In this document: piece by piece, positions 162-14,435 of the stretch | Position numbering within the stretch: position 1 is the first letter of the stretch | How the letters are laid out: each line of letters starts with the position of its first letter | Notes under the pieces: generated by a model | The model's input: the letters and a program-made list of their open reading frames with translations, nothing else | The model's database searches: none | What the model was told of the DNA's origin: nothing | Program-made: the position numbers and the translations under genes | UHGV virus genome: UHGV-0124609 | Direction: 5' to 3' (one strand) | Length of the DNA stretch: 14,435 bases | From: a virus

Positions 162-644
162 TTATTCTTCTTCGAAATACTTGTTCTTGATTGCCGTCAG
201 GCGTTCCAGGTACTCGGCCAGGTCTTCGTCTTTAATCGCGGTAATCTTCATCTTCTTACCGGTGAACTCTTCCAGCAGTTCGTCGGAATCATCACACGCG
301 GCATCGCTAGGACCTTCGTTAATCGCATCGTCGATAGCCTGAATCTGGCCACGAAGAGACTTGTAATCGACTTCTTCTTTCTCTTCTTCCGGCTCTGGCG
401 TCGGTTCCTCTACTTTAGCTTTACGCGGCTTGCGTTTTGGCTTCTCTTCTTCCGCCGGTTTGGTGTCAACGATGTCTTCACCTTCGACCGGGATTTCTTT
501 TGTTGTCTCGATTGTTGCGGTTTGTTCAACGACCCCGGCGACTAATGCAGTTTTTGCAACATTAACTTGTTTTGCACTGTTCGCAGCAATCAGTTCATGT
601 GCAACTACGAAACGTTCCAGTAATTTTAAAAATTGTTCTAACAT
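162..644 (-). CDS. hypothetical acidic protein (160 aa) with a Lys/Pro/Glu-rich low-complexity linker and acidic C-terminus (…KYFEEE)
   Basis: Complete ORF in the six-frame track; ATG (revcomp of 642-644) preceded by a strong SD GAGAGGAGAG (revcomp of 649-658); near-consensus sigma70-like promoter upstream. Translation has a structured N-terminal ~45 aa, then KPAEEEKPKRKPRKAKVEEPTPEPEEEKEE, then an acidic C-terminal domain. Confidence 0.8.
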   Translation of the reverse strand: MLEQFLKLLERFVVAHELIAANSAKQVNVAKTALVAGVVEQTATIETTKEIPVEGEDIVDTKPAEEEKPKRKPRKAKVEEPTPEPEEEKEEVDYKSLRGQIQAIDDAINEGPSDAACDDSDELLEEFTGKKMKITAIKDEDLAEYLERLTAIKNKYFEEE

Positions 645-675
645 TTGTTTCTCTCCTCTCGTTTGGTATGGGCTA

Positions 676-705
676 ACTATAATAGCTAACTATTCAGGTT
701 GTCAA
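676..705 (-). promoter_or_regulatory. sigma70-like promoter for the leftward 160-aa gene (TTGACA-N18-TATAGT)
   Basis: On the minus strand, -35 TTGACA is the revcomp of 700-705 and -10 TATAGT the revcomp of 676-681, with an 18-bp spacer; predicted start lies about 25 nt upstream of the ATG at 644. Confidence 0.55.
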
Positions 706-3299: not shown

Positions 3300-3533
3300 T
3301 TATTCCAGGTCTTCTAAAGTAGCGGTCATTCCGCGAACTTCAGCGACAGCACTATATTTCCCGCCGACATTTTTCACGACACCGGATTTAACCAACACCT
3401 TCAATGACCCTTCAATGATGGCGGAACTATAGTACTTAAAATAACTGCGGCGCAAGTCGATAACACTGCACGACCCTTTTTTACGTGTTAATGAAACGAC
3501 CGCCGTAAATACGCGTGACTGGAACTCGGTCAT
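3300..3533 (-). CDS. hypothetical small protein (77 aa), possibly winged-helix DNA-binding; translationally coupled to the upstream AlpA-like gene
   Basis: Complete ORF whose start overlaps the stop of the upstream gene by 4 nt (ATGA). The assignment of a winged-helix fold is a weak guess from the pattern SLKVLVKSGVVKNVGGKYSAV. C-terminus …TATLEDLE resembles the primase C-terminus. Confidence 0.7.
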   Translation of the reverse strand: MTEFQSRVFTAVVSLTRKKGSCSVIDLRRSYFKYYSSAIIEGSLKVLVKSGVVKNVGGKYSAVAEVRGMTATLEDLE

Positions 3534-3700
3534 TTCACGTTCTCCTTAATCCACGCTTCCACTTTCTCCGGGTCAAACGTACCTGGCTGCCGGCGGCCCA
3601 TAATGCGGGTACAGCAATCAGGGAACTTCCCGCTCTTTAACCAGTTATTCAGCGTGCGACGAGTAACCCCGATGCGCTCTGCTACTTCATTCTGCGTCAT
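3530..3700 (-). CDS. AlpA-family-like HTH DNA-binding protein (phage transcriptional regulator/excisionase-like), 56 aa
   Basis: Translation MTQNEVAERIGVTRRTLNNWLKSGKFPDCCTRIMGRRQPGTFDPEKVEAWIKENVK matches the AlpA/HTH_17 pattern (HTH, then FP, then a conserved W). ATG at the revcomp of 3698-3700 has SD GAGGG with a 7-nt spacer; the ORF track's longer form starts at TTG 3727 with no SD. Confidence 0.8.
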   Translation of the reverse strand: MTQNEVAERIGVTRRTLNNWLKSGKFPDCCTRIMGRRQPGTFDPEKVEAWIKENVK

Positions 3701-3732: not shown

Positions 3733-3761
3733 AGTATACATTGCGAATAATGGGAAATCAA
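3733..3761 (-). promoter_or_regulatory. sigma70-like promoter for the leftward AlpA/primase operon (TTGATT-N17-TATACT)
   Basis: On the minus strand, -35 TTGATT is the revcomp of 3756-3761 and -10 TATACT the revcomp of 3733-3738, with a 17-bp spacer; about 30 nt upstream of the ATG at 3700. Confidence 0.5.
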
Positions 3762-4041
3762 ACATAATCGCACCTATTGACATTATGAAAATCTTCGTTT
3801 AAGGTGCTTCTATATCTTAGTTACTTTGATTCTTGTTCACCTTGTAAACCCCGCCGAAAACGAGCGCCCAACGCGAAGTGTTAGGCGGCAGTTTACTGAA
3901 CATAAGAATTATCGTAACTTTCCTTCCTTAATATCTCCGGTTGCCCTGGGCAAGCTCTATTCTCATCGGCAGCATATCTCTTAAGTAACTGATTTTCTTA
4001 ATGTACCGTAGATTCACAACCGTAAAAATGTAACCCTTACC

Positions 4042-4065
4042 GGGCAGGCTTAAGGCCTGCCCTTT
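4042..4065 (+). other. stable stem-loop (GGGCAGGC-TTAAG-GCCTGCCC) followed by TTT within the non-coding region; possible terminator of a small transcript or structural element
   Basis: 8-bp perfect GC-rich stem at 4042-4049/4055-4062, 5-nt loop, then TTT at 4063-4065. No plus-strand ORF lies upstream of it. Confidence 0.3.
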
Positions 4066-4134
4066 AGTTACCAAGTAATAAGAATAAAGGCACAACCCTA
4101 CCTGAAGAATCACAACGGCAATGTAACTATTCTC

Positions 4135-4163
4135 TTGCACACCCCAACATAATAGGATACTAT
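4135..4163 (+). promoter_or_regulatory. promoter TTGCAC-N17-TACTAT driving the rightward early small-gene block
   Basis: -35 TTGCAC at 4135-4140, 17-bp spacer, -10 TACTAT at 4158-4163; identical hexamers and spacing recur at 5401-5429. The ATG at 4198 lies about 30 nt downstream. Confidence 0.5.
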
Positions 4164-4197
4164 TCACTTATCGAAACGAGACATAAGGAATTTAGAA

Positions 4198-5400: not shown

Positions 5401-5429
5401 TTGCACACTGGGATAGAATAGACTACTAT
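5401..5429 (+). promoter_or_regulatory. promoter TTGCAC-N17-TACTAT with an AT-rich upstream element
   Basis: -35 TTGCAC at 5401-5406, 17-bp spacer, -10 TACTAT at 5424-5429; AT-rich CCAATAAAATTTAC immediately upstream; ATG at 5461 lies 32 nt downstream. Confidence 0.55.
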
Positions 5430-5460
5430 TCATTTACACGAACGAGAGGATAGACAGAAG

Positions 5461-5610
5461 ATGGTTACTTTGATGATTATGGAATTCGAAAACAGCGCTG
5501 CAACTTACCGCGAGATGACTATGGCGCAGGCGTACCATCTGGCATCAAACGGCAGCTTCTACAAGGCTCAAATCATCAATGAGTTCGGGGTAATTGACTA
5601 TGAATTTTAG
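5461..5610 (+). CDS. small hypothetical protein, 49 aa (not in the ORF track)
   Basis: ATG 5461 preceded by the leader AACGAGAGGATAGACAGAAG; frame open to TAG at 5608-5610; its 3' end overlaps the start of the next gene. Confidence 0.55.
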   Translation: MVTLMIMEFENSAATYREMTMAQAYHLASNGSFYKAQIINEFGVIDYEF

Positions 5611-5872
5611 AAGATACACCGTTACCGTTGATTTTGAGGGGCTGGATTTGCCCCTCCCCAACAACTACCGGTATATAACCCGTGACCGTTTCGGGTTTAT
5701 TCAGGGGTGGCGTAACAAGCCGACAGACACTGAGTTCGGGATGTCGGGTGGTGAAGAGTTGCCGATCACGTTCGGGCACCAAAGTAGTAACGAAGAGCTT
5801 AAAACTGTGATTCGTAAGTATCGTCGCCGGGGTAAAACTGAACTTATCGCAATAACAGGCGCTGTTGAATAA
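5600..5872 (+). CDS. hypothetical protein, 90 aa
   Basis: ORF 5594-5872 in the track (TTG); the first ATG is at 5600 with a GGGG SD-like upstream. Confidence 0.75.
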   Translation: MNFRRYTVTVDFEGLDLPLPNNYRYITRDRFGFIQGWRNKPTDTEFGMSGGEELPITFGHQSSNEELKTVIRKYRRRGKTELIAITGAVE

Positions 5873-5891
5873 ACGAGAGGAGAGACGGAAG

Positions 5892-6320
5892 ATGAGTAAC
5901 AAAAACGAAGTATTCGAGTACCTGATTGACCAGCTACGGCAGCAGGTAAATAAGAAAGATGTGACATCTTTCAATGTATCTGTGCAGATATCCGACCTTG
6001 ATGAGGTCAAGCAGGTAGTCCACAACCTACAGCAGCATATCGCAGGTAAGGATGACGAAATACGTGCGCTGAAAGACAGTTTACGGCAGCAGGTAAATAA
6101 CAACCAGTGCGAAGACCTGGCGCATGAGGTGCAGTCACTTAAGAATCAGTTACGTGATGCGTCGGCGCTGGTGGCTGAGTTGCAGAAAGAACTTGATGTC
6201 GCGAATAGCACCGTAGCTCGTTTGAGTAAAGAGGGGGTACAGAGGTGCAACCATGTTTGGTACAGGTACAACTTAGGCGGCTACACTAAGATGTGCCTTA
6301 AATGCGGGCTAAAGAAATGA
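5892..6320 (+). CDS. coiled-coil protein with a C-terminal Cys/His cluster (putative zinc ribbon), 142 aa
   Basis: ATG 5892 preceded by AACGAGAGGAGAGACGGAAG (the track's longer form starts at TTG 5865 inside the previous gene). Translation is heptad-like and Q/L/K/E-rich, with a repeated LRQQVN segment and C-terminal CNHVWYRYNLGGYTKMCLKCG. Confidence 0.8.
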   Translation: MSNKNEVFEYLIDQLRQQVNKKDVTSFNVSVQISDLDEVKQVVHNLQQHIAGKDDEIRALKDSLRQQVNNNQCEDLAHEVQSLKNQLRDASALVAELQKELDVANSTVARLSKEGVQRCNHVWYRYNLGGYTKMCLKCGLKK

Positions 6321-7139: not shown

Positions 7140-7448
7140 TTGGATAAATTTACTGAAACAGTGACGGGGTGGCTTCTCGCTGCCGCACTAGCCGGAGGGG
7201 TAATCGGGCTACGACAACATAAGTCCGTTATTTCAGGCCCAATAGACGGCTTCTGCTTTATTGCAACAGGCTTCACCTGCGCCGTATTTGGTGCACCTCT
7301 TGCGGCCCAATGGTTTGGCATCACGGGCGACCGTGAAATCGCAGGCCTGGGCTTCATTATCGCTATTCTCTGGATGCCTATCTATTCCCGCCTTTCTGGC
7401 ATCGTCGCCGGAGAATACATCGCACGTCGAGGAGGCCCGGATGAATGA
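7140..7448 (+). CDS. holin-like membrane protein (three predicted TM segments, charged C-terminus), 102 aa, TTG start
   Basis: TTG 7140 with SD GGAGGA at 7128-7133 (6-nt spacer) and no in-frame ATG nearby. Hydrophobic segments WLLAAALAGGVIGL, FCFIATGFTCAVFGAPLAAQWFGI and IAGLGFIIAILWMPIY; lies immediately upstream of the endolysin. Confidence 0.7.
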   Translation: MDKFTETVTGWLLAAALAGGVIGLRQHKSVISGPIDGFCFIATGFTCAVFGAPLAAQWFGITGDREIAGLGFIIAILWMPIYSRLSGIVAGEYIARRGGPDE

Positions 7449-7713
7449 GTTATTCTGGTTCGGCGGTATGCTGGCAATCGGAGGCACATCGCTGTTTAAT
7501 GTATACCACTCCAGCGTTGACGACGGACTATTTGGTAGGGTGCTCTATATCCTGACCGCTATTGTCTGTGCCGCCGGATGTATCCACCTGTTACAGGGCA
7601 GCATGTCGCCCACGCTGCCAGAGACATTAATCACATTAGTTGCGCTGCGTCAGATTCGCCAGGCGTGGCTGGCATACGGAGGACATAAGCGTGTCTCGAA
7701 ACATTTCAGATAA
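7441..7713 (+). CDS. second holin-like/antiholin-like membrane protein (at least two TM segments), 90 aa
   Basis: ATG 7441 with SD GGAGG at 7431-7435 (5-nt spacer), overlapping the upstream stop (ATGAATGA). Hydrophobic segments LFWFGGMLAIGGTSLF and VLYILTAIVCAAGCIHLL; basic C-terminus. The track's 7261-7713 ORF is an upstream extension in another gene's coding region. Confidence 0.7.
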   Translation: MNELFWFGGMLAIGGTSLFNVYHSSVDDGLFGRVLYILTAIVCAAGCIHLLQGSMSPTLPETLITLVALRQIRQAWLAYGGHKRVSKHFR

Positions 7714-8179
7714 TGGGCTGCATTTCACCGCCGCATTTGAGGGGTTCCGGGGAACTGCGTATCGCGCTACGCCGAACGAAAAGTACCTGACTATCGGGTA
7801 CGGTCACTACGGCCCAGACGTAACACCCGGTAAGACCATCACACCGGGGCAGGGCCTCCTGTTACTGAATCGCGATATGGCTAAGGCCGTGGCTGCGGGT
7901 GATGCAGCAGCGCACCATTCGCTGACACAGGCGCAGTTCGACGCGGTGTGTGACCTGGTCTATAACGCGGGTGCTGGTGTGATTGGGGTTAATACTGGCA
8001 CGGGTAAGGCGCTGCGTTCTGGTGATATTGCGACGCTGCGTGCTAAGCTGGCGCTGTTTATCAACCAGAACGGCAAACCGCTACTAGGCCTGCGTCGCCG
8101 TACTGCGGGTCGGCTGGCGCTGTTCGACGGTAAACCGTGGCAGGAGGCTGAGGCTATTGGGCGCGCGGTGAAAGGTTGA
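7691..8179 (+). CDS. endolysin, phage lysozyme (GH24 / T4-lysozyme-like family), about 162 aa
   Basis: Translation contains the family hallmarks FEGFRGTAY and TIGYGHYG. GTG 7691 has SD GGAGG at 7678-7682 (8-nt spacer); the track's form starts at TTG 7640 with no SD. The gene overlaps the preceding holin-like gene by 23 nt. Confidence 0.9.
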   Translation: MSRNISDNGLHFTAAFEGFRGTAYRATPNEKYLTIGYGHYGPDVTPGKTITPGQGLLLLNRDMAKAVAAGDAAAHHSLTQAQFDAVCDLVYNAGAGVIGVNTGTGKALRSGDIATLRAKLALFINQNGKPLLGLRRRTAGRLALFDGKPWQEAEAIGRAVKG

Positions 8180-8298: not shown

Positions 8299-8328
8299 TT
8301 GACTATTACCTACGACCCTACTATATTT
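8299..8328 (+). promoter_or_regulatory. sigma70-like promoter (TTGACT-N18-TATATT) for the 8361-10328 block
   Basis: -35 TTGACT at 8299-8304, -10 TATATT at 8323-8328; the AACGAGA leader motif at 8339-8345 and ATG 8361 follow. Confidence 0.5.
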
Positions 8329-8360
8329 ACTTCGCCGACAACGAGAACGGGGTAGAGAAG

Positions 8361-9384: not shown

Positions 9385-9483
9385 GCCACAAGAAATTTGC
9401 AATTAGCCGTGAGCACGCCGCCGTAGTGGCCGACGATATACGAGAAACGGCGTGGCTTGGTGATGGGATAGTGGGGTGATTAT

Positions 9484-9654
9484 ATGTTCAGTGACATCAA
9501 CGCAGCAATAGAAGAAGCAATCTGGCGTCGCTACAACGGCGAACAGCAACGGCACTTCTGCCTGGTGCAACGGGGTAACATGATTGCTGTAGTGCAGGAC
9601 CGCGACAACAAATATCCGAATGCGATGTGGACAACGAGGAATTTCTTAGGATGA
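9484..9654 (+). CDS. small hypothetical protein, 56 aa (not in the ORF track)
   Basis: ATG 9484 preceded by GGGGTGA; open to TGA at 9652-9654, which overlaps the next start (ATGA). Translation MFSDINAAIEEAIWRRYNGEQQRHFCLVQRGNMIAVVQDRDNKYPNAMWTTRNFLG. Confidence 0.5.
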   Translation: MFSDINAAIEEAIWRRYNGEQQRHFCLVQRGNMIAVVQDRDNKYPNAMWTTRNFLG

Positions 9655-9887
9655 TTACCAGCATCCCAAACCTGATTAAAGAATACGGCACGATGGCCGA
9701 GACATGCCGACAAACCGGCATCAACGAAATGACGATTGCGAAGTACAGCAAAGACGTGAATTGCGAGCGCCACGTAATTTATAACAACCGTCTTATGACG
9801 CACGTTAAGACAAGTCCGGTGTTATTCACGCGCCGTGGTATCACTAAAACTGAGCAACGCATTGCTAAAGAGGAGAGCGGGGGATGA
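9651..9887 (+). CDS. hypothetical protein with a possible helix-turn-helix segment, 78 aa
   Basis: ATG 9651 coupled to the upstream stop; the track's form starts at GTG 9627. The segment MAETCRQTGINEMTIAKY looks HTH-like; this is a weak inference. Confidence 0.7.
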   Translation: MITSIPNLIKEYGTMAETCRQTGINEMTIAKYSKDVNCERHVIYNNRLMTHVKTSPVLFTRRGITKTEQRIAKEESGG

Positions 9888-10337: not shown

Positions 10338-10362
10338 AGCCCTCTACGGAGGGCTTTTCTGT
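10338..10362 (+). terminator. rho-independent terminator (AAGCCCTC-TACG-GAGGGCTT then TTCT)
   Basis: 8-bp perfect stem at 10338-10345/10350-10357, 4-nt loop, then a T-rich tail. Confidence 0.65.
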
Positions 10363-13813: not shown

Positions 13814-14435
13814 ATGAGCTTACTTACATCCCTAATCAGCCACCAGATTTGGCTGCAACGCACCGCATCCGGTGAAGTGAAAGACCTCGCACCGTTCATT
13901 AAGGAGATGCGGGACGAAATCAAACGGCAGGTGCTGCTGTTTGGTGACGACGGGCGCAGCACTGCGCGACTGAATAAACTGTTACGCGACCTCGAAGAAG
14001 CACTGACAGGACTTACTGGTGACTGGCAAACAAAGCTGACAGAAGACCTCAAGGAACTGGCGGCGTATGAGGCCGAGTGGAACGCAAAGACCCTTACCGC
14101 CAACGTGAATGCGGAATTTGTTACACCTACCGCCGAACAGGTGTGGGCTGCCGCTGAGTTTCAACCCTTATCGTTAAGCGACAAGCCTGTTGACTTCACG
14201 AAGCTGATGTCGGGCTGGGGCGAAACCGAAGTCGCGCGCCTTGTAACCGGCGTTAAGATGGGCTTTGTACAAGGCCAAACCACACGGCAGATTGTTAAGA
14301 ATGTCGTAGGCGCTGGTGGCCTGGCCGACATCTCTGAACGTAACGCTGCGACGGTAATCCGCACCGCGCTATCTCACGTGTCCAACGAAGCCCGTAACGA
14401 GACGTACCGCCAGAACGACGACATCATCGAGAAAT
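13814..14435 (+). CDS. head morphogenesis / minor head protein (Mu gpF-like or SPP1 gp7-like), partial, continuing past the window end
   Basis: Frame open from ATG 13814 to the window edge (207 codons); an in-frame alternative ATG lies at 13781. Position after the portal gene and the alpha-helical N-terminus are consistent with the gpF-like family; this is not motif-confirmed. Confidence 0.75.
   Translation, partial: MSLLTSLISHQIWLQRTASGEVKDLAPFIKEMRDEIKRQVLLFGDDGRSTARLNKLLRDLEEALTGLTGDWQTKLTEDLKELAAYEAEWNAKTLTANVNAEFVTPTAEQVWAAAEFQPLSLSDKPVDFTKLMSGWGETEVARLVTGVKMGFVQGQTTRQIVKNVVGAGGLADISERNAATVIRTALSHVSNEARNETYRQNDDIIEK

Follow-up and report, generated by a model that had tools for sequence, protein, structure and literature searches.

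A recurrent AACGAGA heptamer in the short leaders of predicted early promoters of a Kagunavirus relative

The window, by which we mean the whole stretch of 14,435 nt of viral DNA (from UHGV-0124609) that was analysed, shares about 90% identity with coliphages of the genus Kagunavirus, among them Bas70 and K1ind1; these are Guernseyvirinae siphoviruses with genomes of about 43 kb, and Salmonella Jerseyviruses are more remote relatives. It holds the end of a leftward replication operon, a divergent regulatory region and a primase-helicase gene, together with three rightward blocks of small genes (the lysis cassette included) and then the terminase, portal and head genes. The holin-like gene at 7140-7448 has an apparent TTG start with a GGAGGA ribosome site 6 nt before it, and the endolysin gene at 7691-8179 starts at a GTG within the preceding gene; both arrangements are ordinary for these phages. 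A small early protein encoded at 9651-9887 is NinH-like. On the two strands of the window, the heptamer AACGAGA occurs in six exact copies:

4175..4181, plus strand: at about +6..+12 of the predicted P4135 transcript, with ATG 4198 lying 23 nt on
5441..5447, plus strand: at about +6..+12 of the predicted P5400 transcript, with ATG 5461 lying 20 nt on
5872..5878, plus strand: a copy without a promoter, overlapping the TAA of the preceding ORF, with ATG 5892 lying 20 nt on
8340..8346, plus strand: at about +7..+13 of the predicted P8299 transcript, with ATG 8361 lying 21 nt on
657..663, minus strand: at about +7..+13 from the predicted leftward replication-operon promoter, 19 nt before ATG 644 of gene 162..644(-)
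14396-14402: within the coding sequence of the head-morphogenesis gene, the sole copy away from start codons

Six copies compare with 2.08 expected, and at least six were seen in 4/200 shuffles. Five of the six lie 19-23 nt before a start codon, within -23..-13, and AACGAGA is the top enriched 7-mer in the region -35..-1 of the 32 curated gene starts of the window (5/6 copies; binomial p = 2e-7, or about 3e-3 once corrected for all 7-mers), which bears out the observation of an earlier note on this DNA that the heptamer recurs shortly upstream of start codons. That note had reported four start-proximal copies. All four exist, and the coordinates given for three of them (4175-4181, 5441-5447 and 5872-5878, before ATG 4198, 5461 and 5892) are exact; the copy before ATG 8361 lies at 8340-8346 rather than at 8339-8345, and the minus-strand copy at 663-657 had been missed. 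Its list of related copies fared worse, as matches with one mismatch are at chance level (52 against 40.4 expected, with at least 52 in 9/200 shuffles): the sequence placed at 9446-9456, ACGAGAAACGG, is really at 9440-9450, six bases off, the one at 9633, AACGAGGA, is an ordinary GAGGA ribosome site within the upstream ORF, and AACGAGC at 3859 is part of a hairpin in non-coding sequence. The coding copy at 14396-14402 corresponds to the codons AAC GAG AC(N), for Asn-Glu-Thr, kept as such in every relative, and is thus unrelated to the leader motif. When the window was searched for an antisense partner, the plus-strand TCTCGTT found was the minus-strand leader copy itself, with no other.

AACGAGA precedes 4 of about 8 promoter-proximal first genes against 1/24 internal genes, the latter being the gene behind the 5872 copy (Fisher p of about 0.009, computed by hand, with the promoter-proximal class assigned by hand on the 32-gene list), so the motif goes with operon starts rather than with ribosome sites generally. 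About half of the promoters are marked in this way, those that lack the heptamer being P720, the leftward promoter at 3761 and the late promoter at 10360. The repeat is real and non-random. Four copies lie just downstream of the following sigma-70-type promoters:

4135..4163, plus strand: P4135, TTGCAC-17-TACTAT, matching the consensus at 7/12 positions, predicted start A4170
5401..5429, plus strand: P5400, TTGCAC-17-TACTAT, 7/12, a paralogue of P4135, predicted start A5436
8299..8327, plus strand: P8299, TTGACT-17-TATATT, 10/12 to consensus, predicted start near 8334
676..705, minus strand: P705(-), TTGACA-18-TATAGT, 11/12 to consensus, predicted start A669

In all four, the -35 and -10 elements upstream of the heptamer are 17 +/- 1 bp apart and the heptamer starts 11 or 12 nt past the -10 hexamer. 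P4135 and P5400 match the consensus poorly, yet the essential TTG and TAnnnT bases are retained and both promoters are conserved among related phages. Counting from the -10, the seventh base is A in 3/4 window promoters (G in the window's P8299), in the consensus of all four promoter families, and also in the Jersey and Sazh promoters examined. Placing the start at this base gives predicted transcripts that begin AUCGA-, ACACG-, GCCGAC- (AUCGAC- in relatives) and AUACCA-, each followed by AACGAGA, with starts inferred to within a possible error of about 2 nt and predicted leaders of 25-28 nt. The earlier note had placed three copies in the first bases of transcripts; this applies to four, at a predicted offset of about +6/+7 to +12/+13. 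Its suggestion of a conserved transcript 5' end is borne out for the leader, as the heptamer is found 11-12 nt past the -10 in four families and in 122 unique contexts from 65 loci, and fails for the end itself, because the heptamer would lie 5-6 nt inside the transcript. The Kagunavirus genome and transcriptome (PMC12645636) papers that we found contain no start-site mapping and do not mention the heptamer.

Several other features surround these promoters. An inverted repeat, (G)AATAG-N4-CTATT(C), overlaps the spacer and -10 at 4151-4164, 5416-5431 and 681-695; it is present at P4135, P5400 and the divergent P705(-)/P720 pair, and in related loci as well, and is absent from P8299. The repeat has the look of an operator, and the likeliest protein to bind it is the Cro/CI-type HTH_3 protein encoded at 770-985. 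For phage fBC-Eco01, PHIRE reported the same consensus (tgAATAGTa-ccTATTat-T, 7 copies) and it was credited to a phage-encoded RNA polymerase, an enzyme that these phages do not appear to encode. Terminator-like hairpins stand 50-70 nt upstream of P4135 (4042-4062), P5400 (5309-5333, a weak one, its stem being 7 bp and its T run short) and P8299 (8244-8277, an 8-bp GC-rich stem followed by T9, passed over by the terminator scan on account of its 9-nt loop), with none at P705(-), so that the right arm is laid out as units of terminator, promoter, leader and gene block; the hairpins themselves fall outside the conserved promoter-leader block. A further promoter-like sequence, TTGACA-17-TAAGGT (3776-3804), faces about 260 nt without a convincing ORF. 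This stretch (within 3776-4070), which has the strong intrinsic terminator 4042-4062 at its end, folds at -71.2 kcal/mol (z = -4.06; 0/200 shuffles as good). As a candidate for a structured non-coding RNA, flanked by the leftward regulator genes on one side and P4135 on the other, it has no match in Rfam.

To follow the leaders through the family we used 65 Guernseyvirinae loci (Kagunavirus and Jerseyvirus, 1.12 Mb in all), from which orthologous promoters were fetched by their upstream halves only, to avoid selecting for the heptamer. These loci hold 243 unique AACGAGA contexts, of which 122 lie 11-12 nt past the -10 of a promoter of the pattern TTGNNN-N16-18-TANNNT; in the 114/122 with a downstream ATG the distance from the -10 is 11-12 nt (sd 0.5) and that from heptamer to ATG is 16-23 nt (sd 1.9). 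Across the cassette from the -35 to the Shine-Dalgarno (SD) sequence, per-site non-consensus is about 1-5%, except between the -35 and the -10 of P705, where it reaches up to 15%. The heptamer departs from AACGAGA in 21/108 unique orthologous sequences, in 20 of them by one substitution, mostly a transition, with AACGGGA, AACAAGA, AGCGAGA, GACGAGA and AACGAAA among the natural variants, and within promoter families purifying selection on the heptamer was found to be no stronger than on the adjoining bases. The comparison of related leaders called for by the earlier note therefore shows conservation of the whole block from promoter to SD and none of the heptamer beyond its surroundings; that the promoter-to-ATG cassette is the conserved unit had escaped that note. 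The motif is absent from Cornellvirus, and the Jersey/SETP3 leftward promoter has AAACAGGAGA in the heptamer's place.

Between promoter families the pattern is different in kind. The spacers of P8299 and P705(-) share 2-3 identities in 17 with that of P4135, whereas the heptamer and its offset are identical, and a 14-nt leader block, AACGAGAGGAGAGA, is common to P705(-) and P5400 despite unrelated spacers and early transcribed sequences. An identical 7-mer behind unrelated spacers calls either for selection or for several copying events that each broke exactly at the heptamer.

The leaders are also distinctive in composition. The heptamer abuts the AGGAG/GGAG core on its 5' side, with the ATG 16-23 nt away, and is missing from 23/24 internal ribosome sites. 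SD pairing begins 0-4 nt 3' of the heptamer and includes at most its last base, the best duplex beginning at that base or 2-4 nt past it; complementarity of the heptamer itself to the anti-SD was looked for and is absent. SD strength does not set these leaders apart: the pairing energy is -7.3 kcal/mol for the genes behind them and -7.4 kcal/mol for the other 27. Of the extended ribosome-binding element suggested earlier, then, what survives is adjacency, 0-4 nt 5' of an SD of average strength, in a loose sense of the term. Pairing of the heptamer with the 3' tail of 16S rRNA upstream of the SD is impossible, as the 16S rRNA ends there. The purine fraction is 0.81 in heptamer leaders against 0.62 before other genes (p = 3e-4). 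We rejected the idea that their ribosome sites are more accessible, since the opening energies of 4.9 and 6.6 kcal/mol, calculated with a few untranscribed bases included, do not differ significantly (p = 0.18). Folded from the predicted start, the leaders have minimum free energies of -2.7 to -7.3 kcal/mol with mostly positive z-scores and the heptamer unpaired, and are essentially unstructured. A search of Rfam returned no family at or near any AACGAGA copy, even at E<=1.

The 5872 copy, which has no promoter, is best understood together with the 5441 copy, because the two belong to a longer repeat:

5441..5463, plus strand: left copy of the leader repeat, 23 nt, AACGAGAGGATAGACAGAAGATG
5872..5894, plus strand: right copy of the leader repeat, AACGAGAGGAGAGACGGAAGATG, identical to the left copy at 21/23 positions

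These repeats flank a two-gene insert at 5461-5872 (genes 5461-5610, encoding a DUF7170 protein, and 5600-5872). The same insert with flanking leader repeats is found in the window and in six related loci (L001, L006, L022, L043 and L064 among them), and other relatives have P5400 fused straight to the gene whose start codon here is at 5892. The number of different genes found behind a cassette is at least 13 for P5400, 6 for P705(-), 5 for P8299 and 4 for P4135; those that follow P5400 in different phages are small and unrelated, and the junction at which the genes are swapped is the start codon. In these comparisons the start codon acts as a mosaic junction for accessory early genes, and the 5872 copy is a recombinational duplicate of the 5441 leader, also unrecognized as such by the earlier note; a mosaic joint at the start codon and an insert bounded by leader copies explain why this copy has no promoter. 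The two-gene module is a clear case of an indel produced by recombination of leader copies. There is no sign of gene conversion between the leader copies within a genome, as those of L022 and L064 carry different variants.

Outside the family, we scanned IMG/VR, with Guernseyvirinae excluded, for the pattern TTGAC-N17-19-TANNNT-N11-12-heptamer and scored matches that are then followed by an ATG and ORF. Among the matches listed, AACGAGA was followed in this way in 25/100 cases, against 10/109 for the control AGACAGA and 7/109 for AAGCAGA; this apparent excess was undone by a third control that keeps the GAGA end, ACAGAGA (37/116 among the matches listed), and we rejected AACGAGA as a general phage signal. 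Because ACAGAGA did as well, the signal outside Guernseyvirinae is one of GAGA-type purine runs beside ribosome sites. Citrobacter phage Sazh (L325; T1-like, Drexlerviridae) has two promoter-proximal AACGAGA copies. Its short leaders at 29653, 30782 and 1506 read TATAAT-gcagacatacc-AACGAGAggatgaccaaATG, TGgTATACT-acacgcatcaaca-AACGAGAgagaggaaataaaaATG and ...catcgaaacgaAACGAGGaaaacacaATG, respectively, and similar leaders in this phage indicate that short GAGA-rich leaders are not limited to Guernseyvirinae.

We compared these leaders with well-known early promoters, a comparison that is post hoc and involves three T7 and T5 promoters of our own choosing. The T5 promoter P_N25, upstream of gene D2, reads TATAAT-agattc-ATAAATTTGAGAGAGGAGTTAAAT-ATG, with a 24-nt leader and an A start 7 nt past the -10, and its +9..+18 sequence is GAGAGAGGAG, where the P5400 consensus has a predicted +9..+18 of GAGAGGAGAG. 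In this strong promoter for the host RNA polymerase, one purine run serves as both the initial transcribed sequence and the SD region; the four leaders studied here likewise have purine-rich early sequence that merges with the SD and are shorter than about 30 nt. P_N25 differs in having ATAAATTT ahead of the purine run, in place of the A-Y-M-N-A-AAC found here, and in lacking AACGAGA, and no homology was detectable between its promoter core and those of the phage studied.

The transcripts of T7 A1 and A3 start ATCGAGAGGG / ATCGAGAGGGAC and ATGAAACGACAG, respectively, and the family consensus leaders here start ATCGAAACGAGAC, ACAC(A/G)AACGAGAGG, ATCGACAACGAGA and ATACCAAACGAGAGG; in a MAFFT alignment the early sequences of N25, A1 and A3 align with AACGAGAG. 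P4135 and T7 A1 have TAGGATACT around the -10 in common (window 4153-4181 against NC_001604 484-510), and both transcripts start ATCGA... (T7 A1, TAGGATACTtacagccATCGAGAGGGAC), a likeness that could reflect convergence of strong early promoters or old common ancestry. The T7 A promoters differ in that their leaders are hundreds of nucleotides long (gene 0.3 starts at 925), which leaves the early transcribed sequence outside any ribosome site, and in A1 the CGAGAG block lies about 5 nt nearer the start than in the leaders here. Purine-rich initial transcribed sequences of N25 and A1 aid promoter escape and pyrimidine-rich 'anti' versions impair it, the A1 sequence allowing easy escape on several promoters (PMC12464699); escape is also helped by GG and GA near +6 and slowed by Y-G steps (PMC5961368), and the heptamer holds one CG step.

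A second parallel is with the PeSL elements of T4-type phages, which combine a promoter and a stem-loop terminator in a mobile regulatory cassette; the promoter is a strong sigma-70-like early one, and copies are repeated amid small non-essential genes and recombine, so that genes are shuffled, gained and lost (Arbiol et al. 2010, PMC2839356; Comeau et al. 2014, PMC4122927). Here too, repeated early cassettes flank variable small genes, an indel is bounded by leader copies, and three of the four cassettes come after a terminator-like hairpin. The differences are that the unit here consists of promoter, leader and ribosome site, with the hairpin separate and upstream, and that PeSL elements belong to T4-type phages, whereas the phage studied here is a Guernseyvirinae siphovirus.

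Considering position, conservation pattern, duplication and analogy, on which our ranking of the possible readings rests, we favour with moderate confidence the view that AACGAGA is the 5' part of a short, purine-rich, unstructured leader in a sigma-70-type promoter-leader cassette of Kagunavirus and Jerseyvirus. Host RNA polymerase would start at the A 7 nt past the -10 hexamer and transcribe the heptamer as about +6 to +13, running into the SD sequence of the first gene. The purine-rich non-template early sequence may favour promoter escape, as described for T5 N25 and T7 A1, and the pairing-poor 5' flank of the RNA may keep the ribosome site open whatever gene follows. The cassette, or its leader part, would be copied and recombined between promoters and genes, with the start codon as the mosaic junction, and the exact heptamer would be shared mainly through this copying and recombination. 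Purine-richness alone leaves the invariant AAC in four families unexplained, and either copying or a specific reader is needed; most likely the exact sequence is kept by cassette copying together with the generic constraints of being purine-rich and avoiding pairing, and not by a dedicated reader. Against this leader-cassette reading are the CG step in the heptamer, since Y-G steps can slow escape (PMC5961368), the 7/12 consensus match of P4135 and P5400, the non-significant difference in opening cost (p = 0.18) and the average SD strength.

Considerably less probable is that the heptamer itself does nothing and is a frozen piece of a cassette spread by duplication and recombination among early regions, retained for no other reason than its place inside a working promoter and ribosome site. 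This would fit with a heptamer that varies within families as much as its flanks (21/108 sequences departing from AACGAGA), with P4135 and P5400 being clear paralogues and a leader duplication being seen at 5872, with Cornellvirus lacking the motif and Jersey/SETP3 having AAACAGGAGA in the same place, and with the control ACAGAGA equalling AACGAGA in other phages among the matches listed. It is harder to square with an identical 7-mer and offset behind unrelated spacers, which call for copying with an exact breakpoint or for selection. A frozen heptamer overlaps largely with the favoured reading, the sole difference being whether the sequence matters.

Unlikely, in our judgement, is a sequence-specific element that co-regulates the four operons, acting through the DNA past the start or through the nascent or mature RNA. 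Candidate readers would be the HTH_17 (Xis/AlpA-like) protein encoded at 3533-3700(-), the HTH_3 protein at 770-985 or a host factor, and candidate modes a roadblock repressor, a Q/AlpA-like antiterminator loader or a translational repressor. An identical 7-mer at a fixed offset from otherwise differing promoters is what such an element would produce, the phage does encode small DNA-binding proteins, and the mark distinguishes about half of the promoters from P720, the leftward 3761 and the late 10360 promoters. Yet the heptamer lacks both palindromic symmetry and a conserved partner site, natural single-base variants of it are frequent, and the palindrome AATAG-N4-CTATT over the -10 is instead the obvious operator for an HTH protein. 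The sigma-70-dependent pause and Q loading of the lambda PR' type require a -10-like TAnnnT on the non-template strand of the early transcribed region. Reading the four family consensus leaders from the start to the heptamer (ATCGAAACGAGA, ACACAAACGAGA, ATCGACAACGAGA and ATACCAAACGAGA) revealed no such element and no hexamer with A2 and T6, which speaks against a specific element of this type. We also doubt the narrower version, in which a phage factor reads AACGAGA, by Q/AlpA-like loading of the HTH_17 protein or as a RegA-type translational repressor, and switches the four early operons together; a dedicated phage factor is made less likely by the promoterless copy and by the presence of copies in a T1-like phage with few proteins in common. 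Were it true, Guernseyvirinae would have a regulon marked by a promoter-proximal transcribed motif.

Very improbable is the earlier suggestion of an RNA-processing or decay site, at which RNase E, RNase III or another nuclease would define the 5' ends of first cistrons. Such a site might be expected to recur just before ribosome sites, including, as the 5872 copy does, inside a polycistronic transcript. For 4/5 copies, however, the predicted primary 5' end is 5-6 nt away and cleavage would gain little. The unstructured leaders exclude an RNase III substrate; RNase E sites are A/U-rich single-stranded segments, which the heptamer does not resemble as it has no U; and there is no Rfam match. That a purine-rich heptamer came to lie near ribosome sites by chance, as the weak raw count (6 against 2.1; 4/200 shuffles) and the one-mismatch copies at chance level might suggest, is hardly credible and is effectively refuted by the 5/6 copies within -23..-13 (p = 2e-7), the same offset from the -10 and the conservation of orthologous sites in dozens of phages.

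The AACGAGA cassette is lineage-specific and of modest interest, with no new mechanism apparent. Promoters in these genomes are annotated inconsistently, and the neighbouring palindrome was once mistaken for a phage-polymerase promoter (PMC9825357). If the leader-cassette reading is right, the motif would show where four early transcription units begin in the genomes of Kagunavirus and Jerseyvirus, phages that are frequent candidates for therapy. The cassette could likewise offer a compact, context-independent promoter and ribosome-site part for engineering. For the phages themselves, the stretch from promoter to ATG would be a joint for swapping small accessory early genes, and thus a siphovirus counterpart of the T4 PeSL idea.
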